From Candidatus Omnitrophota bacterium (GTDB taxonomy: Bacteria; Omnitrophota; Gorgyraeia; Aquiviventales; Aquiviventaceae): 64,000 nt of DNA. The notes beneath the pieces are model-generated. The model was not told the origin of the DNA. It searched no databases and saw only the letters and a program-made list of their open reading frames with translations. Position numbers and translations under genes: made by a program. The stretch is taken from contig JACQRA010000088.1 in NCBI GenBank assembly GCA_016206725.1, positions 1,622 through 65,621 on the forward strand, in the 5' to 3' direction. Positions 1 through 43,494 of the stretch are shown in pieces. Numbering within the stretch: the stretch's first letter is position 1; every line of letters starts with the position of its first letter.

Positions 1-938
1 ATCGTCCGCCGCAATCCTTCTTCAAGCGAAACCGCGGGTTTCCAGCCGAGGAGCTGCTGAGCCAGCGTCGTGTCCGCCAAAAGCCGTTCCACCTCACTGC
101 CTTGCGGCCGCAGACGCTGCGCCTCCTGCTCAACGGCGCCAGCCTTCCCGAGCCGCGTCAGAATCATCCGGGCCAGCTCCCCGATGCTCGTCTCCCGGCC
201 TGACCCCAGGTTGATCGCGCGCCCGACCGCTTCAGGGACGGTCGCCGCCAAGACAAAGCCTTCCACGGTATCACTGACGTAATTCAAGTCTCTCTTCGGG
301 CTGAGATTGCCCAACCGCACCGTCCCGTTGCCCAGGCCCTGCGTGATGATGGTCGGAATGATCGCCCGAGCCGACTGACGAGGCCCAAAGGTATTGAACG
401 GCCGGATCGTTACCACCGGCAGTTCATAGGAACGCCAAAACGATTCAGCCAGCTTGTCCGCCCCGATCTTGCTGGCGGCGTAGGGCGACTGGGCCTGGAG
501 CGGATGCGCTTCATCCATCGGCACATACTGCGCGGTTCCATAGACTTCGCTGGTAGAGGTGTGCACGACCCGCCCCACGCCGCCGGCACGGGCCGCCTGC
601 AAGACATTCAAGGTTCCCACGACGTTGGTCTGGACGAACGAGCTTGGCGCCTGATAGGAATAGGGAATCGCGATGAGCGCCGCCAGGTGAAACACGACCT
701 CGGTTCCCTGCACCGCCTGCAGGACGAGATCCCGATCGGCCAAGTCTCCCGCCACCACCTCCAACTCCTCCTTCAGCGGTGATGTATCCAGCCAACCCCA
801 CGAGCCGTCTCCGCGATAGTGGACGAAGGCGCGCACGGTGGCGCCAAGTTCCACCAACCGTTCCGTGAGGTGGCTGCCGATGAATCCCCCGGCTCCCGTC
901 ACCAAGACCCGTTTCCCTTGCCACATGCTGGTGCTCAT
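1..938 (-). CDS. NAD-dependent nucleotide-sugar 4,6-dehydratase/epimerase (SDR fold); C-terminus runs off window edge
   Basis: Minus-strand frame is open from 938 to position 1, so it is absent from the ORF table. The N-terminus MSTSMWQGKRVLVTGAGGFIGSH is a Rossmann motif, and TSE...YAASK matches the catalytic triad region. The start overlaps the stop of 935..2056 as ATGA. Confidence 0.75.
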   Translation of the reverse strand, partial: MSTSMWQGKRVLVTGAGGFIGSHLTERLVELGATVRAFVHYRGDGSWGWLDTSPLKEELEVVAGDLADRDLVLQAVQGTEVVFHLAALIAIPYSYQAPSSFVQTNVVGTLNVLQAARAGGVGRVVHTSTSEVYGTAQYVPMDEAHPLQAQSPYAASKIGADKLAESFWRSYELPVVTIRPFNTFGPRQSARAIIPTIITQGLGNGTVRLGNLSPKRDLNYVSDTVEGFVLAATVPEAVGRAINLGSGRETSIGELARMILTRLGKAGAVEQEAQRLRPQGSEVERLLADTTLAQQLLGWKPAVSLEEGLRRT

Positions 939-2056
939 GACACAGTTTTCTGAAACGGCGCGGCGCGATGCTTCGCCTTACGCCGAGATTGCTCCCACCG
1001 TTTCACCTGTTCTTGAGCTTCGGCGTAGTCATCGAGCTGACCGATGTCCAGCCAATGCTCCCGAATCGGAAAACTCACCACGGTCCGTCCGGACTTGATG
1101 AGTTGCTGGATGAGCTCCGTCATATCCATCCGTTCTCCCTTGGGGATGAACTGGTAGACGTCAGGCTCCAGCAGATAGGTCCCCGCATTCACGAACGAAC
1201 TCACGAGCGGCTTCTCACTTAACCCCGTGACACGAAATCCCTCGCACCGCACCAATCCATATGGAACCTTCAGTTCATAATGGCGGACGCAGACGGTGAA
1301 GTCCGCCTCGTGCTCCCGGTGGTAGGCCAACATCGCCCGGAAATCCACCTGCGTGAGGATATCGCCGTTCATGACGAGGGTCGTCGTGTCGGGAGGCTCC
1401 TGCAGTCCCAGCGCGCCTGCGGTCCCGAGGGGACGGTCCTCCGTCACATAGGACAGCTCAACGCCAAACTGCTTGCCATCGCGAAAATGCGCTTCGATCT
1501 TCTCCGGCTTATGGTGGGTACTCAGCTTCACGTGCCGCACGCCGGCGTCCCGCAACTGCTCAATGATGAGTTCCAGCAGCGGCCGATCGCCCACGGGAAG
1601 CATGGGCTTCGGGATCTCTTCGGTCAAGGGACTGAGCCGGCTGCCCATCCCGCCCGCCATCACGACCGCCCGCAACGACAGCGGCTGGTTCGGCAGAAAC
1701 TCCTCCATCGTCACCACCCCGACGACTCGATCGGCCTCATCCAGCAACGGCAGATGGAGAATCCCGTGGCGCTTGAGGAGCGCCAGATACGCCCCGCTCT
1801 CCTGCCCCATCCGGGCGGTGATCGGCGTCGCGTAGGGCGTACCGGCTTTCCTCGCCAGGAGCGAACGGATCGGCTGCTCGAGCGCGAGCTTCGTCAAGAG
1901 CGCGCGCCGGATGTCGCCATCCGTGATGGTGCCGATCAGCCGGCGCTGCCCATCCACAACCAGGACGATGCCCAAGCGATTGGCGTCCATCTGGACCACC
2001 GCCGGGTACAGCGCCTGGTCTTGAGACACGCACAGTGTCGCCAGGTCGGTATACAT
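935..2056 (-). CDS. CBS-pair domain plus sugar-1-phosphate nucleotidyltransferase (PtmE-like NDP-hexosamine pyrophosphorylase)
   Basis: 373-aa ORF. The N-terminal half has tandem CBS-like repeats, and the C-terminal half has the nucleotidyltransferase motif AVVMAGGMGSRLSPLT. Confidence 0.75.
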   Translation of the reverse strand: MYTDLATLCVSQDQALYPAVVQMDANRLGIVLVVDGQRRLIGTITDGDIRRALLTKLALEQPIRSLLARKAGTPYATPITARMGQESGAYLALLKRHGILHLPLLDEADRVVGVVTMEEFLPNQPLSLRAVVMAGGMGSRLSPLTEEIPKPMLPVGDRPLLELIIEQLRDAGVRHVKLSTHHKPEKIEAHFRDGKQFGVELSYVTEDRPLGTAGALGLQEPPDTTTLVMNGDILTQVDFRAMLAYHREHEADFTVCVRHYELKVPYGLVRCEGFRVTGLSEKPLVSSFVNAGTYLLEPDVYQFIPKGERMDMTELIQQLIKSGRTVVSFPIREHWLDIGQLDDYAEAQEQVKRWEQSRRKAKHRAAPFQKTVS

Positions 2057-2057
2057 C

Positions 2058-3317
2058 TCACGCGACCTCGTGGCGTAAGGACCACCGGCCGCCCTCGCGC
2101 GTCCAGAGATGCGGCGAGCGGAACTCGTCGCACAGCTCCATGAACCGCTCGACGGTCAGCCCCAAGGCTTCCAGCACCTCTCGAACATATCGCCCTGGCT
2201 GCTCGCCGTCGAAGCGGCGCACCAGGGCGATGCCTTCCTCGCGCGTGAGATGCTTGTTGCGAATCTCCTGCGAGGCGTCATACGACGCCCGGCCAAGGCC
2301 GAACTTGATGTGCGTCGTGTAGTAGTGCAGATCGTCGATCTTGTCATCAATGCTGTTGTACTTGCTGTAGGTTCCCTCGGTGCGGAACGGGCGGGCTTGG
2401 AAGCCGGTGTGTTCGACCGCGTAGTAATACGCCTCTTGAGGCGTCCACTTGATGTAGTAGCCCATGTAGTGCACTTCGATGTTGGAGCGGGCCAACTCCT
2501 CGGCGTCCGCCGGCAGGTAGGCCATGAAATCGTTCAGCGAGAGCTGGTGGCGCTCCATCAGCTCGGGCAGCGGCAGGCCGGCCAGGTAGAGCTCATCGAG
2601 GTGGCGCATGGTGTAGTAGGAGGTGTCGCGCAACGAGCTGGCGGTCTCCGCGATGGGACTGCCGTACTCCGCCTCCGGTTCGCCGAAGAACACCAACGGG
2701 ATCTGGTAGCGCAGCGCCACCTTGGGCGCCAGGTTTTTCTGACCCAGGATGAACGTCTGGAACGGATGCAGGAGATGCTCGATCGCCAGGCGGGTCAGCA
2801 GACGATGGACGCGGCCGTTCGGCTTGAAGGTCACATTGTCGAAGCCGCCCACCTCGATCCAATTCTGAAAATTTTTCCAGCCGTAGTCCGTGTACAGAAT
2901 CGGCGGCCAGGTCACGGTGAGAGGGTGCATGCCGTATGTGTACTTGAGCAGATGCGCCGCGTAGGCGCTGTCCTTCCCTCCGCTGCCCGGCACGAGGCAA
3001 TCATACGCGCCGTCGCTTCGGCGGTACCGGTCGAGCAGCGCGAGGAGTTCCTGCTCGCGCCGCGTCCAGTCAATCGTTTCCTTGCGCTGCGCGTATCGGC
3101 AGGCGTCGCACACGCCCTCCTCGTCAAGATGGAGATACTTCGCGCCCTGGCGGTCCGGCCGGTGCCGAAACTCCGGAATGGAGGAGGGACGCTGGTTGGA
3201 CATCACGCACCCGCGGCAAAAGATCACCTCGCGCGGCAGGCCGTATTTGACCTCCGGCGCGTCAGAGCGTTCTAACGCGGGCTTACGGGTCGCTGACTTC
3301 AGCATGTTGCACCTCAT
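2058..3317 (-). CDS. N-acetyl sugar amidotransferase (WbpG-like, PP-loop ATP pyrophosphatase)
   Basis: Contains the SGGKDS PP-loop and an N-terminal CxxC...NQRP...GVCDAC signature. The ORF runs to 3404, but the likely start is the internal Met near 3317/3305, just after the HisH-like stop at 3283. Confidence 0.75.
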   Translation of the reverse strand: MRCNMLKSATRKPALERSDAPEVKYGLPREVIFCRGCVMSNQRPSSIPEFRHRPDRQGAKYLHLDEEGVCDACRYAQRKETIDWTRREQELLALLDRYRRSDGAYDCLVPGSGGKDSAYAAHLLKYTYGMHPLTVTWPPILYTDYGWKNFQNWIEVGGFDNVTFKPNGRVHRLLTRLAIEHLLHPFQTFILGQKNLAPKVALRYQIPLVFFGEPEAEYGSPIAETASSLRDTSYYTMRHLDELYLAGLPLPELMERHQLSLNDFMAYLPADAEELARSNIEVHYMGYYIKWTPQEAYYYAVEHTGFQARPFRTEGTYSKYNSIDDKIDDLHYYTTHIKFGLGRASYDASQEIRNKHLTREEGIALVRRFDGEQPGRYVREVLEALGLTVERFMELCDEFRSPHLWTREGGRWSLRHEVA

Positions 3318-4008
3318 GGGATGGCGCGGTGATCCGCGCGGCGAGACGACGATACATGCGAAGACCGAGAGGCCCGCTGCGTTCCGGATGGTACTGGCTG
3401 GCAAACACGTGATCCTGTTGGAGTGTCGAGCAGAATGTCGTCGACCCGTAGCGCGTGACCGACAAGACGACCCGCGGATCCACCGGACGGAGATAGAAGG
3501 AATGGACGAAATACATGGCGGAGCCGTCCGTCAACCCCTCCAGCAACGAGCCGTCCCACGACCGCGCCTGCCGCTCGATTCGGTTCCATCCGATGTGGGG
3601 AACTTTGAGGACACGGCCCTGCTCGGTGGAGACGGCCAGCCGCACGACATCGCCCTCAATGATTCCCAAGCCCTTGTGCCGACCGAACTCTTCGCTTTCG
3701 CTCATCAACAACTGCATCCCCAAGCAGATTCCCATGAGGGGCGCGCCGGAGACGGCCGCGTCCCGCAACGGGCTGATCAGATCCAGCCGTCGCAGCGCCT
3801 CCATCGCATCACCGAAGGCGCCCACGCCAGGCAGGATCACGGCGTTCGCCGAGACGATCTGCTCCGAGGAGGAGGTAATGGCCGCGGACAGCCCGACCGC
3901 CTCGCAGGCGTGCTTGACGCTGAACAGGTTGCCCATCCCATAGTCCACGATGGCGACGCGTCCCACCACCTGGCGCGGCCCTACTCCTTCAGGCATAGTC
4001 GACCTCAC
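3283..4008 (-). CDS. HisH-like glutamine amidotransferase subunit (WbuY type)
   Basis: Class I GATase motifs VAIVDYGMGNLFSV and GICLGMQLL. Sits beside a HisF-like gene and a WbpG-like amidotransferase. Confidence 0.8.
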   Translation of the reverse strand: MRSTMPEGVGPRQVVGRVAIVDYGMGNLFSVKHACEAVGLSAAITSSSEQIVSANAVILPGVGAFGDAMEALRRLDLISPLRDAAVSGAPLMGICLGMQLLMSESEEFGRHKGLGIIEGDVVRLAVSTEQGRVLKVPHIGWNRIERQARSWDGSLLEGLTDGSAMYFVHSFYLRPVDPRVVLSVTRYGSTTFCSTLQQDHVFASQYHPERSGPLGLRMYRRLAARITAPSHEVQHAEVSDP

Positions 4009-4849
4009 GGCAGGGGATGCCCCCCGAGCGCATGGCGTCGCGGATCTCCGGCAGGGTCGCCACGTGGATGCTCAAGAACCCTCCGCGACGCTTCGTCAGG
4101 TATTCGACATTCCCTTCAGCGGAGAAATCCCCCACGACCTCATGGTGCCGCACCGTGTGATAGTGCAGCACGGACGCGAGGCACACCGCATTGGCGTGGC
4201 CCTCAGCCACCACGTCGCAGACGTGCTGTACGCTGCCCGCACCGCCGCAGGCAATGACCGGAATCGAGACCGCATCGGCGATCTGCCGCGTGAGTTCCAC
4301 GTCGAAGCCGCGGCCCGTTCCTTCCCGGTCAATGGACGTCACGAGCAGCTCCCCCGCCCCCAACGCGGCCGCCTCCACCGCCCAAGCCACTGCGTCGCGG
4401 CCGGTTTCCTGCCGGCCGTTATCGGTATAGGCTTCGTATCGGCCGTCGGATTTCTTGATCGCCTCAACGGAGACCACGATGGTGGAGGAGCCAAACCGAT
4501 GGGCGGCCTGACGGATCAGTTCCGGCTCGCGAATCGCCGCCGTGTTGAGCGAGACCTTGTCGGCGCCGGCGCAGAGAACCTTGCGAATGTCGTCCAAGGT
4601 TCTGAGGCCGCCGCCGACGGTCAGCGGAATGAAAATCTCTTTTGAGGTGCGCGCCACAATATCCAAGAGGTTGTGGCGTCCGTAGAGACTAGCGACCACG
4701 TCCATGTAGAGCAGCTCATCGGCTCCTTGCTCATAGTAGCAGCGCGCAAACGCCTCGGGCTTGCCCAACACGCGAAGCCCTTCCAGGTGAACGCCTTTCA
4801 CCAGATTGGGTCCCTTGATGTCCAGCCGGGGAATAATCCGCACGCTCAT
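3989..4849 (-). CDS. HisF-like cyclase subunit (WbuZ type)
   Basis: N-terminus RIIPRLDIKG and TIM-barrel HisF-like sequence. The start forms an ATGA overlap with the NeuC-like stop. Confidence 0.8.
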   Translation of the reverse strand: MSVRIIPRLDIKGPNLVKGVHLEGLRVLGKPEAFARCYYEQGADELLYMDVVASLYGRHNLLDIVARTSKEIFIPLTVGGGLRTLDDIRKVLCAGADKVSLNTAAIREPELIRQAAHRFGSSTIVVSVEAIKKSDGRYEAYTDNGRQETGRDAVAWAVEAAALGAGELLVTSIDREGTGRGFDVELTRQIADAVSIPVIACGGAGSVQHVCDVVAEGHANAVCLASVLHYHTVRHHEVVGDFSAEGNVEYLTKRRGGFLSIHVATLPEIRDAMRSGGIPCREVDYA

Positions 4850-6021
4850 GGGGTGACCAATGCTTCAGAAGGCCAATCCACAAATGACTTGGCGATGAAC
4901 CGATGATCCAGCACAACGCCCCGCAGATGGTCCACCATCACGTCCGCCGCGCGTCCCTCACCATACGGGTTGACCATGTTCTTGAGGCACTCGCGGGTCT
5001 CCGGCGCGAGGGCGCGGCGAATACCCTGGAGGATGGCTTCTCGTCCATAGCCGACGTCAATCACGTTCTCCGCCCTCAATCGTCCCGCCTGCCGGGTGCC
5101 GATATTGACGACTGGCAGCTTGAACGACGGCGCTTCGATGAGTCCGCTGGACGAATTTCCGATCATCGCCGCGGCGTGCGCCATGAGGCTGAAATAGGCT
5201 TGTGTGCCCAGGGCGTCGACCACGACCGACGAAGGGCGGCTTGCGACAAACGCCTCGATGGCCCGGCGAATCACCCGGCCGTTGGTGTCCGCATTGGCCG
5301 CCGTGAAGACCACCGGCCGATCCACGACTTCCAGGACGGCGAGCAATTCGCCGATCTGCCAAACCGCCTGTTCGTATTCGAGCGTCACCGGATGATACGT
5401 GACTAACAGCGGGGCCGTCTTCAGCGGCTTGCCGAGGGAGAAAGCGATCTCTTCCAGCGTGAGCAGCTTGACGGTGCGAAGATTGTCTAACCCCGGCGCC
5501 CCCGACACGACGACCCGCCACGGTTCTTCCCCCATCTGGAGCACGCGGCGGCGAGCCTCTTCGGTGGCGACGAAGTGGAGATGGCTCATCTTGGTCATCG
5601 CGTGGCGCCAAGCGTTGTCAATCGCTCCATTCGTCAGCTCCCCGCCATGGAGATGGGCCAGCGGGATGGCAAACGGCACCGCCGCCACCGCCGCCGCGTG
5701 CATCTCGAACCGGTCCCCCAACAGGACGAGCACATCCGGACGGCATCGCCCATAGGCCTGCGAGAACCCCAGCGTGCCACGCCCCATGGCGGCGGCGATG
5801 CCGGCAGGGCTGTCGTCGCCCAAGCCCATGGGAATCCGCTCGGCAATGGGAAATCCATCAACCTCAATGGCGCGCACCGTCAGACCGAACGACGGCTCCA
5901 GATGCGTGCCCGTGACGAACAGGCGCAGCGCCAACCCCTCAGCCTGTTGAATCGCCCGCAACACCGGCCGATAGATGCCGTAGTCTGAACGACCGACGGT
6001 CACCACGCCAATCGTTCTCAT
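4846..6021 (-). CDS. neuC: UDP-N-acetylglucosamine 2-epimerase, hydrolysing type (NeuC/LegG-like)
   Basis: 391 aa with GDRFEMHAAAVAA, HLHGGE and a NeuC-family layout. Confidence 0.8.
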   Translation of the reverse strand: MRTIGVVTVGRSDYGIYRPVLRAIQQAEGLALRLFVTGTHLEPSFGLTVRAIEVDGFPIAERIPMGLGDDSPAGIAAAMGRGTLGFSQAYGRCRPDVLVLLGDRFEMHAAAVAAVPFAIPLAHLHGGELTNGAIDNAWRHAMTKMSHLHFVATEEARRRVLQMGEEPWRVVVSGAPGLDNLRTVKLLTLEEIAFSLGKPLKTAPLLVTYHPVTLEYEQAVWQIGELLAVLEVVDRPVVFTAANADTNGRVIRRAIEAFVASRPSSVVVDALGTQAYFSLMAHAAAMIGNSSSGLIEAPSFKLPVVNIGTRQAGRLRAENVIDVGYGREAILQGIRRALAPETRECLKNMVNPYGEGRAADVMVDHLRGVVLDHRFIAKSFVDWPSEALVTP

Positions 6022-7073
6022 CAGCGGAGCATCTCCAACGCGATCAAGGCATCCGCCGGAATATCCTGGGCCGCGATGCGCCCGATCACCTGAGGCAACA
6101 GGGAGGGCGGCAATCCGATGCCCGGCCGCTTGGTCGTAATCAACGCCTCGGTCAATCGCGTGCCGGCACGCACATCGCAGGCGGCCACCAGGCTCTTGCG
6201 GGCCACCGCCGCCGTTTCCAACTCGCGGGCGGCCGGCTCTTTGCGCCCATGGCCGAGCGCACGCTCCACGAGTCGGATGCCCCGCACCAACGCCGCCAAT
6301 TCATCCGGCTCAAGGGACATCTGATGATCCGGACCCGGCAGGTTGCGATTCAGCGTGACATGTTTCTCAATCACGCAGGCCCCCAGCGCCACCGCGGCCA
6401 AGGCGACCTCGATGCCCGGCGTGTGATCCGAGTAGCCCACCGGCACGCCGAAGGCGCGAGTCAAGCTGGCCATCGCTCGCAGATTGGCATCGGCCGGATC
6501 CGCCGGATAGTTGCTGACGCAATGCAGCAGAATGAGCGGCGGGTTGCCGGCCTCGCGAATGACACGGACCGCTTCAGCCACTTCCGCTTCCGTGCTCATG
6601 CCGGTGGAGACAATCATCGGCCGTCCTTTCTGCGCGATGTGGCGCAGGTACGGCAGATTGGTCACTTCACCCGAGGGCACTTTGAAGACCGCCACGTCGA
6701 GCGTCTCGAGAAAATCGGCGCTCTCTTCATCGAAGGGTGTGCACATGTACCAAATCCCCTGCTGCCTGCAGTAGGCGGAAATGGTCCGATTCGCTTCCTG
6801 GGAAAATTCCAGGCGCCGCAACATCTCGAGTTGGGACTCGCCGCCTCCGGTCGTCTCCGCTTGGTAGTGCGCCTTCGGCGCGCAGGCGGCGGCCAGGCGC
6901 TCGGCCTTAAAGGCTTGGAACTTGACCGCATCAGCTCCGGCCGATTTGGCCGCATCCACCAGCCGGCGCGCCATGTCCAGATCCCGATTGTGGTTGACCC
7001 CGACTTCCGCCACGATGAAACACGGCTCCCCGGGGCCAACCCAACGTCCGGCAATCTCCACAGGCTTCACCAT
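6021..7073 (-). CDS. neuB: nonulosonic acid synthase (NeuB family, with C-terminal SAF domain)
   Basis: From the internal Met: MVKPVEIAGRWVGPGEPCFIVAEVGVNHN, followed by a SAF-like C-terminus. The table ORF extends upstream in-frame, but the homology start is at about 7073. Confidence 0.85.
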   Translation of the reverse strand: MVKPVEIAGRWVGPGEPCFIVAEVGVNHNRDLDMARRLVDAAKSAGADAVKFQAFKAERLAAACAPKAHYQAETTGGGESQLEMLRRLEFSQEANRTISAYCRQQGIWYMCTPFDEESADFLETLDVAVFKVPSGEVTNLPYLRHIAQKGRPMIVSTGMSTEAEVAEAVRVIREAGNPPLILLHCVSNYPADPADANLRAMASLTRAFGVPVGYSDHTPGIEVALAAVALGACVIEKHVTLNRNLPGPDHQMSLEPDELAALVRGIRLVERALGHGRKEPAARELETAAVARKSLVAACDVRAGTRLTEALITTKRPGIGLPPSLLPQVIGRIAAQDIPADALIALEMLR

Positions 7074-7858
7074 ATCGTCCACCCGCCATCCACGACCAGG
7101 TTGTGCCCTGTCACATACGCGGAGAGATCGCTCGCCAGATACGCAACGGCCCCCTTGAGATCTTCCTCCGTCGCCATCCGACCCAGCGGCGTGCGCGTGT
7201 GATATCGGCGGCGGAATGCGGCCGGTTGATGGCGCCACACACCTCCCGGCGAGACGGCATTCACGCGAATGCGCGGGGCCAAGGTTGTGGCCAGGTAGCG
7301 GATCAGTTGCAGGATCCCGCCTTTGGACGCGGCATAGCCGGCCGGCTGGGCCATGGCCGTTCCGTCATAGAGCCGCCAATCCGGCCCCACCAGCCCATAG
7401 ATAGAGGAAAGAAGGATGACAGAACCGTGCCCGGAGGCAGCCAGGGCGTTTCGAGCCTCTTGAACCATGACGAAGGCTGAGGTCACATTGACCCGCATCG
7501 CCGCGTCCCACGCTTCCACGGTCTGCTGCGAGAACGGCACCGCCCAGCCCGGCTTCTTGGTCGCTCCCACATAGGCGGCGCAATGGATGAGAATCTCGAG
7601 TCCGCCCATCCGCTTGATGGCGGCTCGGATCGCCTGGCGGGTCGCGCGCTCATCGCGCAAGTCGCACCGCATCGCATCGGCACGGCCGTGAGCGCGTACA
7701 TCCAATATCATGACACGACTGCCCGTTTCTTCAAGTGCCTTGGTGATGACGGTGCCGATATGGCCAGCCCCGCCGGTCAACAGGACCCTCCGGCCGGTCA
7801 GATCCATGAGCTGTGCCACCGACCGCTCCATCAGACTCGCACCGCCTCGCTGAGCCAC
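7067..7858 (-). CDS. short-chain dehydrogenase/reductase (SDR) oxidoreductase
   Basis: TGGAGHIG Rossmann motif, YAASK catalytic motif and SPGGV. Coupled to neighbours by overlaps. Confidence 0.7.
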   Translation of the reverse strand: MAQRGGASLMERSVAQLMDLTGRRVLLTGGAGHIGTVITKALEETGSRVMILDVRAHGRADAMRCDLRDERATRQAIRAAIKRMGGLEILIHCAAYVGATKKPGWAVPFSQQTVEAWDAAMRVNVTSAFVMVQEARNALAASGHGSVILLSSIYGLVGPDWRLYDGTAMAQPAGYAASKGGILQLIRYLATTLAPRIRVNAVSPGGVWRHQPAAFRRRYHTRTPLGRMATEEDLKGAVAYLASDLSAYVTGHNLVVDGGWTIW

Positions 7859-8583
7859 GGCAAGGTAATCAGCCCGCTCCTCACCATGGCTTCGGCCCGC
7901 GCAAATTGCTTCGCATCATCAATCGACATCGCCCGTATCTCGGGAATCTCATGCAGCAGGTAACGCCCACCGCGCTGCCATGATCCCTGATGCACCCGCA
8001 CAAAGGCTGCGCGCCAGAGATAGATGGAGCCGTTGATCCGATACACCGTCGGGACGTCCTGGCGGCGCGTAAACTGCCCCCCCGACTCGATGAGCTGAGC
8101 CATACAGCCGTCGCGCTCCACGACACAATGCCAGATCGGATTGAACTCCGGCTCGGACACCCCGATGATGCCGTCGGCCTCGGGCGACTCGCGCAGCTTC
8201 CGCAGCGCGACGGTCACGTCCAACGGCTCGCGGGCCGGCGAGGTGGGATCGAGCAGCAAGATCTCCTTGTAGAATCTCCTTTCCTCCTTTTCGACAAACG
8301 CCAGCGCGTGCTGGACGACCATCCAGAGTGGCGTGTCATCTTGCGCCAACTCGGAGGGTCGGGAACAGGGCGTTTCGGCGCCAAACCGCTTCGCGACCTC
8401 CGCAATCTCTTGGACATCAGTCGAGACCACACACCGGTCAATCTCCGGACACATCTTGGCAAACAAGATGGAATGCGCGATGAGCGGCAGACCGAGAAAC
8501 GGCCGGATGTTTTTGCCCGGCAGCCCCTTGGATCCGCCGCGCGCCGGGATGACGGCCAGCAGCCCCTGCTCCGCGTCGCTCAT
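7831..8583 (-). CDS. neuA: acylneuraminate cytidylyltransferase (CMP-nonulosonate synthetase, NeuA family)
   Basis: LAVIPARGGSKGLPGKN motif. The likely start Met21 is at 8583 and forms ATGA with the upstream stop. Confidence 0.8.
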   Translation of the reverse strand: MSDAEQGLLAVIPARGGSKGLPGKNIRPFLGLPLIAHSILFAKMCPEIDRCVVSTDVQEIAEVAKRFGAETPCSRPSELAQDDTPLWMVVQHALAFVEKEERRFYKEILLLDPTSPAREPLDVTVALRKLRESPEADGIIGVSEPEFNPIWHCVVERDGCMAQLIESGGQFTRRQDVPTVYRINGSIYLWRAAFVRVHQGSWQRGGRYLLHEIPEIRAMSIDDAKQFARAEAMVRSGLITLPWLSEAVRV

Positions 8584-9569
8584 GAGGCATACTCCACTCG
8601 TTCCTCCCGCCGACTGTGGGAAGCAATGCGGGCGGCGTCGCACACCGCCAACGCCATCACCCCCTCCTGTCCGGTCGCCAAACGCGGATCGTGCGCGCCG
8701 CCGCAGGCGGCAAGAAAGGCTTGCGCTTGAGCGGTGAACATCGCATCGCGCGTTTGCGAGGACCGCCGGGTGATCGCCTCCGTCCCGTTGGCGGCGAGCG
8801 TGACCGTTCCCGCGACCCCATCCCAGCTCAGCGTGCCGTGTTCACCGCACGCCCGCATGGCGCGCCGCGGCGGCGTCGTCAAATAGTCCACGCACAGGCA
8901 GATGAGACATCCTTCGGCAGTTTCCCACGACACCTCCGCGATTTCCTCCGCGCTAATCCCCAACCGCCCCAGGTTTCGCACGCGCGCCTGCACCGCGCGC
9001 GGCCAGCCATACAGCCATCCGGCGTAATCCACCTCATGAATCAGATCCCGCAACACGCCGCCCTCATCCATATGAGCCGAATAGCGCTCACGGCATGGAC
9101 GGCCACCCGGATGCCAATCCGGCAGATACGACTGGCACTCGATCCGCACCGCATGGAGCCGTCCCAGCGACGGCAACCGTTCGCGGAACCAGCCCAACGA
9201 CTCGCTGAACCGCATCACGCAGCCCGTGAAGAGCCTCCGCTCGGCAGCCTGCGCGCGCGCGGCGAGCTCGCGCGCCTGCGCCGCATCACACGCCAGCGGC
9301 TTCTCAACGAGCAGATTCAGTCCCTGATCGAGCGCGTCGAGCCCATCCCGCAGGTGACGGCCGGTGTCGGTCGCAATGATCGCCGCCGTCGCGCCCAACT
9401 CGGCCGCCTCCCGCACATCGGCGGCCGTTGAAAATCCTTGCGCGGCCAGCTCGCCCCTGCGTTCGGCCCGAATCGGCACCGCAATGGGGCACAGCCCACC
9501 GCTCTGCGTCAAGACCCGTAGGTGCCTCGTCCCAATGCTGCCGGTTCCCACCACCGCAATGGCACTCAT
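8580..9569 (-). CDS. Gfo/Idh/MocA family NAD(P)-dependent oxidoreductase
   Basis: IAVVGTGSIG Rossmann motif and EKP motif. The ORF extends to 9608; the internal Met gives a conventional N-terminus. Confidence 0.7.
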   Translation of the reverse strand: MSAIAVVGTGSIGTRHLRVLTQSGGLCPIAVPIRAERRGELAAQGFSTAADVREAAELGATAAIIATDTGRHLRDGLDALDQGLNLLVEKPLACDAAQARELAARAQAAERRLFTGCVMRFSESLGWFRERLPSLGRLHAVRIECQSYLPDWHPGGRPCRERYSAHMDEGGVLRDLIHEVDYAGWLYGWPRAVQARVRNLGRLGISAEEIAEVSWETAEGCLICLCVDYLTTPPRRAMRACGEHGTLSWDGVAGTVTLAANGTEAITRRSSQTRDAMFTAQAQAFLAACGGAHDPRLATGQEGVMALAVCDAARIASHSRREERVEYAS

Positions 9570-9591
9570 CACCGAAGCAAGGGCGTTGTCG

Positions 9592-11010
9592 TTACCGACG
9601 CCATCCAAGGTTCTCCCGAAGATCCGCGACGCGAAACGTCTGGATTAAGTTCATGCGGTTGCCGGCTCGCGGATAGCCCACCGCGGTCACCAGAATGATG
9701 TCTTCGTCCGTCAGCTGCTCTCTCCGCCAGAGCACCTCGAGACATCGGGGGATGTGATCGGTGCTCGTGCGTGAAAAGGGCACGTCCACGTGAACGCCTT
9801 CCGTGCCGGCGAACAGTTGGAAGCTTCTGGCCGCGGCAGCGTCATCGCTCACGGCGAGAATCGGCTGGACAGGGTGGTGGGTCGCGATCGCGCGCGCCGC
9901 ATATCCCGATTTCGTAATGGCCACGATCTTGGTGATGGGCAGCTGGCGGCACAGCAGGGCGATGGCTTCTCCGACCGCTTCCGGGATGGTCCGCGAGGAC
10001 GCCGCAATCTCCTCGGCCGCTCGACTGCGGTGGAGGCTCACCGCATCCACAATGCGGCGCATCGTCTTCACCGCCTCGATCGGATACGCGCCCACCGCGG
10101 TTTCTGCGGAGAGCATGACCGCCGACGCGCCATCCAGGACGGCATTGCTGATGTCGCTGACCTCGGCTTTCGTCGGAACAGGCGCGCGCACCATCGAGTG
10201 GAGCATTTCCGTGGCGATGATCACCGGCTTGTACACCCGCCTGGCCGAGGCGAGGATGCGCTTCTGGTGCAACACCACCCGCTCCAAATCCCGCGTCTCC
10301 GTCGAGAGATCGCCGCGATCAATCATGATGGCATCGGCGGATTCCAGGATCTCCTCGAGCTGCTGCATCGCCTTGGGCGTTTCGATCTTCGCGATAATCC
10401 GCGGCCGTTCCGAGCCGATGAGCATCCGAATCGCCTCAAGCTGCTGCGCGGAATCAATGAAGCTGGCGCCGATAAAATCCACGCCCGCTTCGCACGCGAA
10501 GGCGATGAGGCGTTTGTCCGCTTCGGTCGTCAAGCCGCTCCACAACGCCGTGGGAATCGAAAGGCCCTTGGCGCTCGTCAGCGTGCCGCTGGTCTGCGCT
10601 TGGCAGACGAGGTCATGTTCGCCGACATCCACCACCGTGAACGCGAATTGCCCGTCATCCACCAGGACGCTGTCTTGCTTCGACACGACGCCGTGGAGCG
10701 CCGGGGCGTTGATCGGCACTTTGTCGCCGCCGCCGTCCTGCGCCGTGGTGAACACAATCGTATCCCCGGCTTGGAATCGCACATCAGTCGGCAGATTCGC
10801 CACGCGGATCTTCCGGCCAGGCAGATCCAACAGGATGGGCACGGCGGGAGCCATCTCGCGCAGCCGTTCGATCACTGTGCGGTGCCAGTCGAGCTGGTTG
10901 TGCGAACCGTTCAAGCGGGCGATGTCCATGCCGGCTTCGCAGAGGGCGCCGAGGGTGACCGCGTCACAGGTGGTCGGCCCAATGGTTGCCACGATCTTGA
11001 TTCGGCTCAT
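9592..11010 (-). CDS. pyruvate kinase family protein
   Basis: 472 aa with PK motifs KIVATIGP, RLNGSH, VLVDDG, GVDFIGASFI, IIAKIE, MIDRGDL, VIIATEMLHSM, AEVSDISNAV and MLSAETA. Variant DLPGRKIR in place of the canonical DTKGPEIR. Confidence 0.75.
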   Translation of the reverse strand: MSRIKIVATIGPTTCDAVTLGALCEAGMDIARLNGSHNQLDWHRTVIERLREMAPAVPILLDLPGRKIRVANLPTDVRFQAGDTIVFTTAQDGGGDKVPINAPALHGVVSKQDSVLVDDGQFAFTVVDVGEHDLVCQAQTSGTLTSAKGLSIPTALWSGLTTEADKRLIAFACEAGVDFIGASFIDSAQQLEAIRMLIGSERPRIIAKIETPKAMQQLEEILESADAIMIDRGDLSTETRDLERVVLHQKRILASARRVYKPVIIATEMLHSMVRAPVPTKAEVSDISNAVLDGASAVMLSAETAVGAYPIEAVKTMRRIVDAVSLHRSRAAEEIAASSRTIPEAVGEAIALLCRQLPITKIVAITKSGYAARAIATHHPVQPILAVSDDAAAARSFQLFAGTEGVHVDVPFSRTSTDHIPRCLEVLWRREQLTDEDIILVTAVGYPRAGNRMNLIQTFRVADLRENLGWRR

Positions 11011-12092
11011 GGGGAGGCCTCCTCTTCTTCTTCAATAAAGCACGGCAGGGCCGTAATGCTTTGCAGCACTTCCGGACGAATGAGCTCCGGGGCCGGGGGA
11101 CTTCCGCCGCCCAGGAGCGCGCGCACCGACGTCCCGCTGATATGGCGGATCGCCTCCGGCGCGCTCGCCCCATGCGGGCAGGAGCGCTCCGTGACGATGC
11201 CCCCGCAGATGGTGCAGTGGTACGGGCCGGAGCAGCGCAGCACCTCGATGCCCAGCTGCCCGTCAAACTGCCGCGTGAGCTCGTGCGCCGCGTATCTCCC
11301 GTAATAGTTCCCCACCCCGGCATGATCCCGACCGACGATGAAATGAGTGCAGCCGTAGTTGCGGCGGATAATCGCGTGGAAGACCGCTTCCCGCGGTCCG
11401 GCATAGCGCATGGCCGTGGACAGTACCCCCAGCACCACGCGGTCTTTCGGAAGGAAACGGTCAATGAGCGTGCGATAGGCCGTGAGGATCGCCTTCGGCG
11501 TGTAATCCCCACGCTGCTTGAATCCAACCAGCGGCTGGATAAAGAGTCCCTCGGAGAATTCCAGCGCCAATCGCAGGAGATACTCGTGCGCCCGATGCGG
11601 CACGTTGCGGGTCTGGAAACCGACGACGGTTTTCCACCCGCGACGGGCGAACTCCGCGCGGGTCTGCTGGGGCGTGAGCTCATGATCGGAGAACTCGCAC
11701 CGCGCCCGCGCGAGCAGTGTCACCGGCCCGCCGACGAACCACTCCTTCAACCGGAAGAAGTACGCGACACCGGGATGAGCGGTGTCGTCGGTCCCATAGA
11801 CCTGCCGGGCCACGGCGGCCCTGTCGCACCGGTAGACGCTCTGCGGCGTCAGCTCGCCGACTTCCTGACCTTCGTACATCAACCGCGCCTGGTCGCTGCG
11901 GCGCAACGCGCGCGCGTCCGACACGTCCAATACAACGGGAAGCGGAAACACGGCGCCGTTGGGCAGCCGCATCGTTGAGACCACGGACTGAAACTCCGCC
12001 TCCGTCATGAAGCCGCCCAATGGCGCGAACGCTCCCAGGGCGAGCTTCTCCAATTCCAGATACTGATGGCGATTCAGGACCAACGTCGTCAT
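11007..12092 (-). CDS. sat: sulfate adenylyltransferase (ATP sulfurylase, Sat type)
   Basis: 361 aa with QTRN and GRDHAG(VG) motifs. ATGA overlap with the PK start at 11010. Confidence 0.8.
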   Translation of the reverse strand: MTTLVLNRHQYLELEKLALGAFAPLGGFMTEAEFQSVVSTMRLPNGAVFPLPVVLDVSDARALRRSDQARLMYEGQEVGELTPQSVYRCDRAAVARQVYGTDDTAHPGVAYFFRLKEWFVGGPVTLLARARCEFSDHELTPQQTRAEFARRGWKTVVGFQTRNVPHRAHEYLLRLALEFSEGLFIQPLVGFKQRGDYTPKAILTAYRTLIDRFLPKDRVVLGVLSTAMRYAGPREAVFHAIIRRNYGCTHFIVGRDHAGVGNYYGRYAAHELTRQFDGQLGIEVLRCSGPYHCTICGGIVTERSCPHGASAPEAIRHISGTSVRALLGGGSPPAPELIRPEVLQSITALPCFIEEEEEASP

Positions 12093-13153
12093 GCGTGTCC
12101 GTTCGTTGGATACCCGAAGAGCGACTCGGCGAAGCGCGCCAGCGCCGCCGCCTGGCGCAACGACACCAACGGAACCGCCGCGCGAACTCTCGCTTCAAGT
12201 GCTGACGCGGTCTGCTCAACAAACCCCACCTTCACGGTTGGGTCGACCGCGACGACGGGCATCGCCTCCCACTCAGCCAAGGGGGCGCGGCGCCGAAGGA
12301 CCTGTTCCAGTGGACCGTGCCGATAGGACGACACCGACGTGTGAACCTCCACCGACCATCGCCCCGTGGATCCCCAATCCGCATGGTACGCAAAGGGAAT
12401 CCCATGCTCCGAGACGCCAGAGCCGACGAACACCGAGCCAGTCGGATGCCATGACACGGCCGTCCCCCCGCGGTGACCATGCCACTGCGCCGGCATGCCG
12501 ATGAGGGCATGGGCCATGCTCATGACGTGCAGGCTATTGGCAATTCCCCAACGAGCCAGCTCCTCGGCTGTGAAGAGCTGCGGCCAATCCGGCTTGATGA
12601 ATTCCGTGAAGGTATAGGTACAGGAGGTGATGCCGCCCTCCTGCGCCGCCAGGGCTCGCACCTCCTGGAGTGCCGGGTAGGCCACGCGGTTATAGGCGCA
12701 CCACGCCTCAGCGCCTGCGCGCTCAAGCGACTCCGTGAGCCGTTCGATGGCGCCTGACCAGAGCGAGACCGGCTTTTCAATAAGCAGCCGGCGGTAGCCG
12801 AGGGACACGAGATGCTCAGTGGCCTCTACCAACCGATCGATCGGCACCGCCACAATGCCTAGCTCGCCTGGACGTCCCTGCCGCGCCATCCGCTCAAACC
12901 CGCCGGCCATCAGTTCCACACCGTCCATTCCGCGCAAGGGCTGCAGCCTCGCCTCTGATCGGGAACAGACACGGATACGTTTCACGCCGAGGATGCGCAG
13001 CGCCTTGACGTATTGCGCGCCCATGCCGCCGTAGCCGATCACGGTCGCCGCGCAGGCGGAGAAGTCTTCCGCACGGATCGCCTGAGCGAGCGCCGCCGAG
13101 GACAGCACCGGCGAAACGCGGAGGTCGCCTGCAGCGGACGGATTACTGCTCAT
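12089..13153 (-). CDS. Gfo/Idh/MocA-like oxidoreductase
   Basis: VIGYGGMGAQY Rossmann motif and IEKP motif. Confidence 0.55.
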   Translation of the reverse strand: MSSNPSAAGDLRVSPVLSSAALAQAIRAEDFSACAATVIGYGGMGAQYVKALRILGVKRIRVCSRSEARLQPLRGMDGVELMAGGFERMARQGRPGELGIVAVPIDRLVEATEHLVSLGYRRLLIEKPVSLWSGAIERLTESLERAGAEAWCAYNRVAYPALQEVRALAAQEGGITSCTYTFTEFIKPDWPQLFTAEELARWGIANSLHVMSMAHALIGMPAQWHGHRGGTAVSWHPTGSVFVGSGVSEHGIPFAYHADWGSTGRWSVEVHTSVSSYRHGPLEQVLRRRAPLAEWEAMPVVAVDPTVKVGFVEQTASALEARVRAAVPLVSLRQAAALARFAESLFGYPTNGHA

Positions 13154-13841
13154 AGCAGGCGACCCCTAAATGTTTGGTGCGCCGGATGGTGGTCAGCGTC
13201 CTCTTGCGGCCGTCAATCGCTCCCGCGGCAAGTCGCGCCAGGAATTCCGGGACCCCATAGTGGCCGGGCACCGTCAGGCCAACGTCATGAAACGCAATCA
13301 GCCCGCCGGGCTTGACCAGCGGGCTGTAGAGCAGCCAGTCGGTCAGCACCGACGCGTACTGGTGGTCGCCGTCAATGAAGAGCAGGTCCACCCCCCCGCA
13401 GGCGACCTGATAGGTTTTCGCCACGGTCGCCGGCTCATACGACATGCCGATGATAAAGGCGCTGCGCCGATCGCCCAGCGCCCACCGGTCGTGGAAGGCC
13501 CGCATATTCGTTCCGAAGATACGGATGCGCTCGTGCGATTTCTCGATGGTGATGATCCGCTTGAACAGCAGACGCCACAGGAAGTGGGTGCTGCCGTAAT
13601 ACCCCAGCCCTACCTCCAGCGCAGTGCCCAGCCGTTTCCGCGACAACAACAGCGAGACGAACTCCTTGATCTCGTCGCGGTCCTGCTGGATGCCCGCGTC
13701 ATCCGGAATCATGAAATCTTGCATCGGGACCCAGTCGCCCCGCTCGTACTTGCCGTTGCCGTGACGGGCCACCCAGGCATCCAGTTGCTTCATCACGCGG
13801 TTGACGGTCGAGCGCCCTGCGTCCTCACGTAACCGGGGCAT
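13143..13841 (-). CDS. class I SAM-dependent methyltransferase (CmcI-like fold)
   Basis: GxGxG-like LEVGLGYYG and an LFIDGDH motif. Confidence 0.55.
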   Translation of the reverse strand: MPRLREDAGRSTVNRVMKQLDAWVARHGNGKYERGDWVPMQDFMIPDDAGIQQDRDEIKEFVSLLLSRKRLGTALEVGLGYYGSTHFLWRLLFKRIITIEKSHERIRIFGTNMRAFHDRWALGDRRSAFIIGMSYEPATVAKTYQVACGGVDLLFIDGDHQYASVLTDWLLYSPLVKPGGLIAFHDVGLTVPGHYGVPEFLARLAAGAIDGRKRTLTTIRRTKHLGVACYEQ

Positions 13842-24300: not shown

Positions 24301-24742
24301 GCTTGAGCCCCCAGTCGTAGGGGATCTCGTTCGTGAACGGATCAAGATGGATGATCTCCTCAGGATCGTGCGGCTCAGTCGCGCAGTTGGCGAGAATCAC
24401 CAGCTTGTCCCCGTAGGCCTTGTAGCCGTTCGTGATGCCGGGAGGAATCTGCACGAGGCAGTAGTGGTCTTCGCCCAAGAAGATCTCCTGGATCTGGCCT
24501 TTCGTCGAAGAATGCTCACGTCCGTCATAGAGGACGAGTTTGGCCCGGCCGGAAATCACCGCATTGTTGAGCGTCATCGTCTTGTGCACGTGCCACGCCT
24601 TGATCGTGCCGGGCCACGCGCACGAAAAGTACATCTCCCCGAAGCGGATGAAATGCGGATCGGTCGCTTTGAGCATCAGCATGACCTTGCCCCGCTCATC
24701 GACAACCTGCTTGAGTGGAATGATCTTCACCCCCTCGATCAT
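24293..24742 (-). CDS. RmlC-like cupin (dTDP-4-dehydrorhamnose 3,5-epimerase family)
   Basis: 149 aa. The cupin core carries the conserved His (WHVHKTM). Confidence 0.65.
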   Translation of the reverse strand: MIEGVKIIPLKQVVDERGKVMLMLKATDPHFIRFGEMYFSCAWPGTIKAWHVHKTMTLNNAVISGRAKLVLYDGREHSSTKGQIQEIFLGEDHYCLVQIPPGITNGYKAYGDKLVILANCATEPHDPEEIIHLDPFTNEIPYDWGLKHG

Positions 24743-25959: not shown

Positions 25960-25977
25960 CTCCCAGCTCTCCTCATC

Positions 25978-43491: not shown

Positions 43492-43494
43492 CGG

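Follow-up and report, generated by a model that had tools for sequence, protein, structure and literature searches.

The sat-pyk pair and its genomic context

The DNA analyzed here (the window, 64 kb in full) is a glycan island encoded on one strand in a Candidatus Omnitrophota MAG. It carries a sat gene (11007..12092, minus strand) for a homodimer-type ATP sulfurylase (sulfate adenylyltransferase) of 361 amino acids, with the Pfam domains PUA_2 and ATP-sulfurylase (PF01747), followed by a pyk gene (9592..11010, minus strand) for a sulfation-associated pyruvate kinase paralogue of the K+-independent type, with A, B and C domains in 472 amino acids. The sat product scored above the cut-offs of NF003166 (428.6 bits; cut-off 387) and TIGR00339 (336.3 bits; cut-off 322.95), and its translation contains QTRNVPHRAH and VGRDHAG, matching the ATP sulfurylase active-site motifs QTRN-x-x-HRAH and GRDHAG, as well as a C-x2-C...CPH cluster. 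Its closest solved structures are 8a8d and 1v47 (E ~1e-95). The kinase matched Pfam PK (PF00224; 267 bits) and PK_C (PF02887; 53 bits) and exceeded the cut-off of TIGR01064 (384.7 bits; cut-off 306.4), while remaining under the threshold of all more specific NCBIfam pyruvate kinase models; it has the domains, the profile score and the catalytic, metal and nucleotide ligands of the pyruvate kinase family.

The two genes meet in an ATGA stop/start overlap (11007..11010, minus strand; ccATGAgc), where the TGA stop of sat shares bases with the ATG start of pyk, an arrangement of translational coupling. The earlier note had described this junction between sat and a full-length pyruvate kinase gene, and both the sequence and the profile matches bear it out. 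Overlaps of 4 nt are frequent in the window operon, occurring at about eight junctions, and the sat/pyk junction is therefore unremarkable by itself.

The pair is located in a nonulosonic-acid (NulO) module of the legionaminic/neuraminic type. Immediately downstream, overlapping the end of pyk, is a GFO/IDH/MocA oxidoreductase gene (8580..9608, minus strand; Pfam GFO_IDH_MocA and C3 domain), and upstream of sat is an NAD-binding oxidoreductase-like gene (12089..13153, minus strand) with a weak match to the GFO_IDH_MocA and Shikimate_DH N-terminal domains, so that the pair is indeed wedged, as had been noted before, among the oxidoreductases of the Neu module. Also on the minus strand are genes for a CMP-nonulosonate synthetase of the NeuA/LegF/PseF-like type (7831..8643; Pfam CTP_transf_3; 127 bits to TIGR03584, under its cut-off), a nonulosonate synthase of the NeuB/LegI type (6021..7238; Pfam NeuB and SAF; 445 bits to TIGR03569, cut-off 400) and a hydrolyzing UDP/GDP-GlcNAc 2-epimerase of the NeuC/LegG type (4846..6021; Pfam Epimerase_2; annotated as "UDP-N-acetylglucosamine 2-epimerase (hydrolyzing)"), and an SDR gene (7067-7858) lies downstream of pyk. 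The synthase, the hydrolyzing epimerase and the CMP-transferase together constitute a NulO cluster. It is accompanied by an accessory set (935..4849, minus strand) of HisF-like (3989-4849), HisH-like GATase (3283-4008) and PtmE-like CBS plus nucleotidyltransferase (935-2056) genes and a gene for a 448-aa protein without a Pfam match (2058-3404), and this set recurs beside cysC-sat-pyk in two related loci (L001, whose sat is 57% identical to that of the window, and L004).

Pfam scans of about 55 ORFs spanning the whole 64-kb window returned no match to APS kinase (PF01583) or to Sulfotransfer_1/2/3, and genes for dissimilatory sulfate reduction (apr, dsr) were likewise not seen among the scanned ORFs. 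The unannotated ORFs had no Pfam match even at E values up to 1. A tblastn search of the window with cysC and sulfotransferase sequences taken from related loci found nothing, and locus-derived profiles for sulfotransferase likewise had no match in the window, which upholds the earlier observation that neither an APS kinase nor a sulfotransferase is recognizable there. The ORF of 657 amino acids at 14857-16830, considered as a hidden sulfotransferase, was rejected, as its product is hydrophobic and resembles a membrane protein. The contig (67,458 bp) includes a further 3.4 kb outside the window, for which exact-protein look-ups with window-edge proteins found no record. The slot held by cysC in most related loci is filled in the window by the gene at 12089..13153, which overlaps the start of sat by 4 nt; tblastn with cysC from related loci found no APS-kinase similarity in it. 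The window therefore carries a reduced version of the cassette described below, with sat and pyk joined by the overlap and with neither a cysC directly upstream nor a clustered sulfotransferase. The pathway as seen in these 64 kb is incomplete, and sulfation of the glycan made there is something we infer.

A distinct subfamily of pyruvate kinases

Sequence comparison assigns the window kinase to a distinct subfamily, not to ordinary pyk: members share a median identity of 60% with one another, and their identity to canonical kinases does not exceed 41%. No subfamily member was found in PLSDB, where all 297 matches were below 60% identity; the matches listed are about 36-37% identical to the kinase and annotated as pyk, and the PLSDB pyk matches served as the canonical comparison set. 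The window protein carries the subfamily signature DLPGRKIR / MIDRGDLSTET / ATEMLHSM and agrees with the subfamily at 113 of the 115 positions conserved in at least 95% of members, indicating that it is under the same constraint as the rest.

The predicted fold is that of a full pyruvate kinase. The AF2 model (pLDDT 87) aligned in Foldseek over its full length with solved pyruvate kinases at TM scores of 0.82-0.88, the value for the M. tuberculosis enzyme being 0.88. At the sequence level, the phosphoryl-transfer and nucleotide-site residues are all retained. The invariant ones (PKM2 numbering) are T50, P53, R73, N75, H78, D113, R120, K270, E272, R294, G295, D296, T328, S362 and E364, among which R73, N75, H78, D113, R120, K270, E272, D296, T328, S362 and E364 do not vary among 200 subfamily members and six canonical kinases; K207 is invariant in an alignment of 32 subfamily sequences (A1).

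The loop DLPGRKIR, which the earlier note had singled out as an altered K+/substrate loop, is present in the window kinase, where D-L-P-G-R-K-I-R-V provides L113, K117 and V120. K117 occurs in 200 of 200 subfamily members, position 114 is Pro in place of the usual Gln, and the counterpart loop of the M. tuberculosis pyruvate kinase reads DLQGPKIR. Published work defines K+-independent pyruvate kinases by Lys117, Leu113 and a hydrophobic side chain at position 120 in rabbit numbering (PMC8835810, PMC4284704), and the window kinase has all three. For this reason, the loop was rejected as a sign of new chemistry.

K+-independent (type II) pyruvate kinases such as E. coli PykA and M. tuberculosis Pyk (5wrp/5ws9) share the three-domain fold of the window kinase (37% identity and TM 0.88 between its predicted model and 5wrp), the catalytic and nucleotide-site residues and the Leu113/Lys117 signature (PMC8835810, PMC4284704). 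The subfamily differs from them in Asp293, Glu329, His332 and Lys342, in the invariant Pro114 and Arg116, in Gly76 for Phe, in an extra residue in the alpha6' helix and in a conserved C-terminal extension ending in ...L..L.W. Its genes also lie in sulfation and glycan cassettes and not with glycolytic genes.

The changes that are really unusual affect the allosteric switch and adjoin the PEP site: A293D, G298S with one residue added to the alpha6' helix, Q329E, E332H and R342K. These sites are near-invariant in canonical kinases and altered in nearly all 200 subfamily members (D293 in 200, S298 in 171 and K342 in 198), so that the conserved form of the switch, an alpha6' helix of (A)RGDLG(x)E with the trans-subunit Arg342, is lacking in the subfamily. 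Strong conservation of the alpha6' helix has been described for pyruvate kinases as a whole, and in the Leishmania enzyme the equivalent of Arg342 is essential, its mutation killing the enzyme (PMC3467265). The substitutions in the alpha6' helix/Arg342 switch suggest altered regulation, possibly constitutive or differently triggered, rather than new chemistry; near-invariant changes beside the PEP site, taken with the Leishmania result, nevertheless leave room for an altered reaction.

Linkage to sulfate activation in related loci

A scan for the kinase signature in a one-genome-per-species collection (185,579 species) revealed 160 relatives, patchily distributed over about ten phyla; Stappia sediminis is one of the cultured carriers. 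Linkage was counted in 85 sources, consisting of 84 related loci and the window, with the neighborhood defined as 10 kb of the kinase. A sat gene was near the kinase in 71 of these sources and cysC, directly upstream of sat-pyk, in 64, while at least one of sat, cysC and sulfotransferase stood beside the kinase in 80. The commonest gene order is cysC-sat-pyk on a single strand. The 4-nt overlap of sat stop and pyk start was found in 41 of the 58 scorable loci, most of the others having gaps of 9 nt or less; it is this conservation among related loci, and not the overlap per se, that goes beyond chance. At least 21-28 related loci contain a recognizable sulfotransferase, a count that is a lower bound. 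In 33 of the 85 sources the 10-kb neighborhood includes a gene for NulO biosynthesis, and in 52 it does not; several of the sulfation-linked kinase loci are NulO clusters. These counts sustain the earlier suggestion that the pair could signal a sulfated sugar: it points to glycan sulfation and not to an incidental placement of housekeeping genes.

In about 14 loci the kinase has no adjacent sat, and several of these (L002, L051/L053, L057, L069, L084 and L091) have it beside sulfotransferases, with three Sulfotransfer_1 genes and a CysQ-like gene in L091. Seven sources show the pair sat-pyk without a visible cysC, among them the window, L074, L079, L052 and L075; in two cysC-less loci, L021 and L055, the locus sequence ends upstream. 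One MAG (isolate OFTM58) contains two kinase copies, each adjoining a sat (L028 and L042). Apparent Sat-PK fusions in four loci (L010, L011, L034 and L059) were rejected: the DNA there is rich in GC and the frame simply stays open upstream, sat lying in a different frame with the usual 4-nt overlap. Among about 200 subfamily members, none was found to be fused to sat or cysC. Single-linkage clustering of the neighbors was used as a guide only, since clusters 1 and 3 were contaminated by overlapping-frame ORFs.

Discussion

On balance, we favor reading the sat-pyk pair as a cut-down version of a sulfate-activation cassette that is widespread and horizontally mobile and has its own PEP-driven kinase to regenerate ATP and remove ADP. 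As the pairing beside sulfation genes recurs in most related loci and in many phyla, the kinase is probably an ATP-recharging helper for the making of sulfated glycans and not a stray housekeeping gene. The full cassette would comprise cysC-sat-pyk, usually with sulfotransferases and sometimes with a phosphatase resembling CysQ or a transporter of the TauE type, and its insertion into polysaccharide or NulO clusters would lead to sulfated glycans. Sat, to judge from its family membership and motifs, would form APS from ATP and sulfate, and APS kinase, adjacent in most loci and, for the window, necessarily encoded elsewhere, would convert APS to PAPS. The co-translated pyruvate kinase paralogue would then use PEP to recharge to ATP the ADP released by APS kinase, and also the ADP formed via PAP and AMP. 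Removal of ADP would prevent APS kinase from being trapped in a dead-end E-ADP-APS complex, and recharging would help to pull the unfavorable sulfurylase equilibrium. In vitro, PAPS synthesis needed regeneration by pyruvate kinase and PEP because ADP and APS form such a complex on APS kinase (PMC9885120), and the sulfurylase step is thermodynamically unfavorable (PMC3728988). In principle, the task could equally fall to a housekeeping pyruvate kinase, so that ATP regeneration alone gives no obvious reason for a dedicated, ancient paralogue.

In the literature on pyruvate kinase with sulfate activation, sulfotransferases, NulO or operons, no published description of a sat/cysC cassette with a pyruvate kinase was found. 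In the known NodPQ/CysDNC systems, or with sat-cysC beside sulfotransferases, extra sulfate-activating copies supply PAPS for one sulfated product. The full cassette resembles these in its cysC, sat, sulfotransferase and occasional CysQ-like gene, and differs in having a pyruvate kinase as fixed third member, the window copy differing further by the lack of cysC and sulfotransferase. The same three activities, ATP sulfurylase, APS kinase and pyruvate kinase with PEP, were combined in an engineered PAPS cascade (PMC9885120); that was an engineered mix with commercial muscle pyruvate kinase, whereas here a specialized paralogue of predicted activity is genetically hard-wired. Bifunctional PAPS synthases (Aquifex 2gks, fungal enzymes and human PAPSS) likewise couple consecutive steps of sulfate activation, and 2gks and 1m8p are among the homologues of the window sat. 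In the loci studied here, however, coupling is through the operon and overlapping codons and the partner is a pyruvate kinase; the window sat itself is of the short 361-aa homodimer type, nearest to those of T. thermophilus and M. thermolithotrophicus, unlike the Sat-APS kinase fusions.

A bolder conclusion, which we regard as unlikely, is that the kinase could be a new catalytic or structural part of sulfate activation, either as a PEP-dependent APS/PAP-type kinase, so that cassettes lacking cysC, like that of the window, would make PAPS from sat and pyk alone, or as the organizer of a three-enzyme PAPS-synthase complex, with the switch residues D293/E329/H332/K342 sensing APS, PAPS or PAP. 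That the paralogue has acquired a new substrate in sulfate-nucleotide metabolism, through PEP-dependent 3'-phosphorylation of APS in replacement of CysC where cysC is missing, as in the window, re-phosphorylation of the PAP/AMP type or sulfuryl transfer, seems improbable to us. It would suit the seven sources with sat-pyk and no visible cysC, and the near-invariant D293, E329, H332, K342 and alpha6' insertion beside the PEP/metal site; rabbit pyruvate kinase, moreover, reportedly moves a sulfuryl group from sulfoenolpyruvate onto ADP. However, cysC stands directly upstream in 64 of the 85 sources, so the kinase is no general substitute for CysC, and the idea of a pyruvate kinase-like enzyme standing in for APS kinase fails as a general account. 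In addition, the window protein departs from the subfamily consensus at only two of 115 conserved positions, which argues that cysC-less loci have no specialized kinase variant; the ADP-binding and phosphoryl-transfer residues are all conserved, and L021 and L055 are merely truncated upstream.

About as doubtful is a physical PAPS-synthase complex of the three enzymes in which the kinase would be mainly structural, regulatory or channeling and ATP regeneration secondary. The conserved coupling to sat suggests stoichiometric co-production, the altered residues cluster at the switch and the A-A' subunit interface (R342K and the alpha6' helix; PMC3467265), the C-terminal ...L..L.W extension is conserved, and fused Sat-APS kinase enzymes such as 2gks show that coupling of the steps is selected. 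Yet a kinase fused to sat or cysC is missing from all of the roughly 200 members, and in about 14 loci the kinase has no sat next to it.

It is very improbable that both genes are ordinary housekeeping copies in an incidental operon position, as would be the case if a sulfate-metabolizing organism had no other pyk or sat: although both exceed general equivalog or subfamily HMM cut-offs and have complete catalytic residues, the kinase subfamily is far from canonical kinases and is marked by an invariant signature of its own, its linkage to sat, cysC or sulfotransferase holds across about ten phyla, the OFTM58 MAG has two copies that both adjoin sat, and no apr or dsr was seen in the window. Scarcely credible is the suggestion, hinted at earlier through the use of PEP by NeuB, that the kinase serves the NulO pathway by adjusting its supply of PEP and pyruvate, with sat as an unrelated passenger. 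NeuB does lie in this operon, 2.3 kb downstream, and NulO genes accompany the kinase in 33 loci, but most loci have none while sat/cysC linkage is near-universal, a pyruvate kinase would use up PEP in competition with NeuB, and the conserved overlap joins the kinase to sat and not to any NulO gene.

Reports of sulfated glycans from bacteria of marine, groundwater and wastewater habitats are increasing, and, to our knowledge, how cells sustain a costly and product-inhibited PAPS supply has been little studied. If the kinase does act as an ATP-regenerating helper, the cassette of sulfurylase, APS kinase and pyruvate kinase would be nature's answer to ADP inhibition and the equilibrium problem, the same that biochemists adopted in vitro. 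The signature ATEMLHSM / PTKAE[VI]SDI would then be a genomic marker for sulfation clusters, and the subfamily would supply PAPS-regeneration biocatalysis with an existing K+-independent pyruvate kinase, possibly a deregulated one. The joint tolerance of R342K and A293D would also be a natural experiment on the allosteric switch of pyruvate kinases. For the Omnitrophota MAG, the prediction is a surface glycan that contains NulO and is sulfated.

The sat and pyk genes and their neighbourhood

The window was found to be a single minus-strand island of glycan-biosynthesis genes (more than 50 genes, G+C about 63%). Within it, sat (11007-12092, minus strand) encodes an ATP sulfurylase of 361 amino acids, with Pfam PUA_2 and ATP-sulfurylase domains and a score of 428.6 bits against the NCBIfam profile NF003166 (cut-off 387). 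Its translation shows the motifs QTRNVPHRAH and VGRDHAG together with a Cys-x2-Cys...CPH cluster, and the nearest solved structures (E ~1e-95) were the short homodimeric sulfurylases of Methanothermococcus thermolithotrophicus (8a8d) and Thermus thermophilus (1v47). The neighbouring pyk (9592-11010, minus strand) encodes a full-length pyruvate kinase of 472 amino acids with Pfam PK and PK_C domains, which scored 384.7 bits against TIGR01064 (cut-off 306.4) and fell under the cut-off of all more specific NCBIfam pyruvate kinase models. Exactly matching protein records from an Omnitrophica/Omnitrophota MAG are named "pyruvate kinase" and "sulfate adenylyltransferase". The stop codon of sat overlaps the start codon of pyk (ccATGAgc); since 4-nt overlaps also occur at about eight junctions of the operon, this junction alone is not special.

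Upstream of sat, on the minus strand, lie an oxidoreductase-like gene overlapping it by 4 nt (12089-13153), a methyltransferase (13143-13841), a GFO/IDH/MocA oxidoreductase (13825-14817) and a hydrophobic ORF of 657 amino acids without Pfam match (14857-16830), probably a membrane protein. Downstream of pyk, on the same strand, follow a second GFO/IDH/MocA oxidoreductase (8580-9608), a CMP-nonulosonic acid (NulO) synthetase (7831-8643), an SDR (7067-7858), NeuB (6021-7238; TIGR03569 above cut-off) and a NeuC/LegG epimerase (4846-6021), beyond which are HisF/HisH-like genes, a 448-amino-acid protein without Pfam match and a PtmE-like CBS-nucleotidyltransferase. These downstream genes constitute a legionaminic/neuraminic-type NulO module. 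ORF, Pfam/NCBIfam and junction analyses thus confirmed the earlier note, which placed an ATGA-coupled pair between oxidoreductases of such a module. Its statement that the window lacks APS kinase (cysC) and sulfotransferase also held: neither appeared when about 55 ORFs spanning the 64 kb were scanned with Pfam, and tblastn of the window with cysC and sulfotransferases from related loci gave no match.

Several other features of the island were recorded. A GNAT acetyltransferase-DegT-type aminotransferase fusion (18761-20686, minus strand) is interrupted by one in-frame TAG (19682-19684): the upstream ORF ends ...DLTWVA*, the same-frame downstream ORF resumes AAPVCYVGARPVLVDID, and the TAG separates Pfam DegT positions 3-76 from positions 84-359. 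A nonsense mutation, read-through or an error in sequencing could explain it. The combination of a UbiA-family prenyltransferase, a split transketolase/E1-like pair and two B12-binding radical-SAM enzymes (41021-45566 and 51170-52618) is unusual for a sugar pathway; in the related locus L004, the cassette likewise has UbiA and HAD genes nearby. In an 853-amino-acid protein (28934-31495), a glycosyltransferase of family 2 is fused to the membrane and ATPase module of an ABC transporter; it has relatives in 19 related loci (neighbour cluster 9). The genes at 23299-24345, 28309-28950, 37448-38977 and 39978-41024, for two GHMP kinases, a SIS-domain isomerase and a bifunctional cytidylyltransferase-like and PfkB protein, suggest a heptose-type nucleotide-sugar branch. 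G+C drops to 0.56 at 24001-26000, against about 0.63 elsewhere, coinciding with a 406-amino-acid gene (24739-25959) with only a weak methyltransferase match; this segment may be a more recent insertion.

A distinct kinase subfamily

In a protein search, the window kinase matched more than 120 clusters at 54-61% identity, each of 470-514 amino acids and with PK and PK_C domains. They share the motifs D[ILV]PGRK[IV]R, M[IV]DRGDLS[VA]ET and ATEMLHSM, where canonical kinases have DxxGPxIR, MVARGDLGVE and ATQML[DE]SM. Scanning a one-genome-per-species collection (185,579 species) with two signature peptides yielded 160 relatives, and the loci of 80 were retrieved. Alphaproteobacteria predominated, accompanied by Acidobacteriota, Omnitrophota, Elusimicrobia, Planctomycetota, Bacteroidota, Actinomycetota, Chloroflexota, Gemmatimonadota and Verrucomicrobiota; carriers include the isolates Stappia sediminis, Hongsoonwoonella zoysiae and strain BAL199. 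No member was found in the plasmid collection. Identity within the subfamily had a median of 60% and a minimum of 40%, compared with 28-41% to six canonical kinases, namely E. coli PykF (query confirmed at 100% identity), four annotated bacterial pyk products and human PKM2, whose sequence serves for numbering only. The window kinase departs from the consensus at just 2 of 115 strongly conserved positions and is therefore not decaying. One alphaproteobacterial MAG, isolate OFTM58, carries two sulfation-type copies (L028 and L042), each adjoined by sat; in L042, cysC lies downstream, not upstream.

Gene context across related loci

Context was counted within 10 kb of the kinase in 85 sources (84 loci and the window). 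At least one of sat, cysC or a sulfotransferase was present in 80, sat in 71 and cysC in 64, while any NulO gene (NeuA, NeuB or NeuC) occurred in 33. The commonest order was cysC-sat-pyk on one strand, with the end of sat at the start of pyk; of 58 scorable loci, 41 have an overlap of exactly 4 nt (ATGA, GTGA or TTGA), and in most of the rest the two genes are at most 9 nt apart. Precomputed Pfam labels on metagenome contigs showed APS_kinase, ATP-sulfurylase and PK followed by a sulfotransferase in NulO clusters with NeuB, CTP_transf_3 and HisF/HisH (L001, L004/L005); radical-SAM/SPASM, PK, Sulfotransfer_1 and CTP_transf_3 in L002 (Omnitrophota); and Sulfatase-family, cysC, sat, PK and radical-SAM/SPASM in L090 (Omnitrophota). 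In L091 the kinase lies in a polysaccharide cluster that also has a CysQ-like phosphatase and three Sulfotransfer_1 genes; this kinase was the second-closest relative among the matches listed (60% identity). The gene right after the kinase differed by locus (asparagine-synthase-like, Sulfatase-family, TauE-type transporter, inositol-monophosphatase/CysQ-like or Na+/H+ exchanger). Because of the conserved sat/cysC/sulfotransferase context, the kinase is tied to sulfation and not to NulO synthesis as such, and its scattered distribution among phyla implies horizontal movement of the cassette together with glycan islands. The window carries a reduced, sat-pyk-only form.

Sulfatase-family (alkaline-phosphatase superfamily) proteins were encoded in 19 of 85 loci, often adjoining the cassette (L090, 6533-8392 and 11454-12620; L002, 8850-10001; L045, 11448-13031; L074, 11386-12579), sometimes accompanied by radical-SAM/SPASM genes that resemble those of anaerobic sulfatase-maturating enzymes; the single window gene (48016-49671) lies 36 kb from the cassette. 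They may serve in sulfate-ester editing or phospho-group transfer. In two unrelated loci (L001, 11533-12228; L037, 4460-5236), the gene immediately after the kinase belongs to the CDP-alcohol phosphatidyltransferase family, and in L001 a dual-specificity phosphatase-like gene comes next. A TauE/SafE-family anion transporter gene just after the kinase (L022, L033 and L085; Pfam-confirmed for L022), an arrangement present in the cultured S. sediminis and H. zoysiae, may import sulfate for the cassette.

Active site and allosteric switch

The phosphoryl-transfer, metal- and nucleotide-binding residues (PKM2 T50, P53, R73, N75, H78, D113, R120, K270, E272, R294, G295, D296, T328, S362 and E364) were invariant in 200 subfamily members and the canonical set, as was K207 in a 32-sequence subfamily alignment. 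The AlphaFold2 model of the window kinase (pLDDT 87, pTM 0.86) matched solved kinases over its full length, best the M. tuberculosis enzyme (TM 0.88). The DLPGRKIR loop (rabbit positions 112-119, followed by Val120), previously regarded as an altered K+/substrate loop, is indeed present but is an ordinary K+-independent signature: Leu113, Lys117 and a hydrophobic residue at 120 mark K+-independent pyruvate kinases, Lys117 supplying the K+ charge (PMC8835810, PMC4284704), and the M. tuberculosis loop reads DLQGPKIR. Only Pro114 and Arg116 are subfamily-specific within it.

The genuinely unusual changes were A293D (200/200 members), G298S (171/200), Q329E (194/200), E332H (198/200), R342K (198/200) and F76G (186/200), together with a single amino acid inserted after Glu300 and a C-terminal extension that is conserved. 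The alpha6' helix comprises residues 294-300 and, in the active state, is clamped by Arg342 of the neighbouring subunit; it has been described as strongly conserved throughout the pyruvate kinases, and the arginine as essential in the Leishmania enzyme (PMC3467265). We read these co-varying changes as a rewired allosteric switch, although the PEP-side substrate may have changed.

Proposed role in sulfate activation

The best-supported function, which we favour with modest confidence, is that of a PEP-driven, ATP-regenerating and ADP-removing helper of sulfate activation. Sat would form APS, a thermodynamically unfavourable reaction (PMC3728988); APS kinase would convert APS to PAPS and ADP, and sulfotransferases would consume PAPS. 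The co-translated kinase would turn this ADP and PEP into ATP, giving the net reaction ATP + PEP + sulfate -> PAPS + PPi + pyruvate, and would likewise recharge ADP derived from PAP via AMP. ADP and APS lock APS kinase in a dead-end complex, and PAPS was "practically missing" from an engineered cascade lacking pyruvate kinase/PEP ATP regeneration (PMC9885120); ADP recycling would thus relieve the inhibition and pull the pathway forward. If the window glycan is sulfated, a possibility raised in the earlier note, cysC and a sulfotransferase are predicted to sit elsewhere in the MAG.

Alternatively, the kinase may act structurally or as a regulator in a complex with Sat and CysC, which would fit the translational coupling and the subunit-interface changes. 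The kinase may also have gained a new substrate, as a PEP-dependent APS 3'-kinase in cysC-less loci or in PAP recycling, which the seven sat-pyk loci without cysC in view and the substitutions adjoining the active site would allow; however, 64 of 85 loci do have cysC, and the cysC-less members have no special kinase variant. Incidental operon placement of housekeeping sat and pyk, an alternative raised at the outset, is contradicted by the divergence from canonical kinases, the context conserved across phyla and the MAG with two copies. A role in balancing PEP/pyruvate for NeuB conflicts with the weak NulO association and with pyruvate kinase itself using up PEP.

Both components of the pair come from known families, sat belonging to the Sat-type sulfurylases and the kinase to the K+-independent class of pyruvate kinases. 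Dedicated sulfate-activation genes beside sulfotransferases (NodPQ and similar) are likewise well known. The apparently new element is a specialised pyruvate kinase fixed in, and translationally coupled within, such cassettes, of which no description was found in open-access papers or preprints. The cassette bears on PAPS biocatalysis and on the allostery of pyruvate kinases, and its occurrence in cultured carriers makes it testable.
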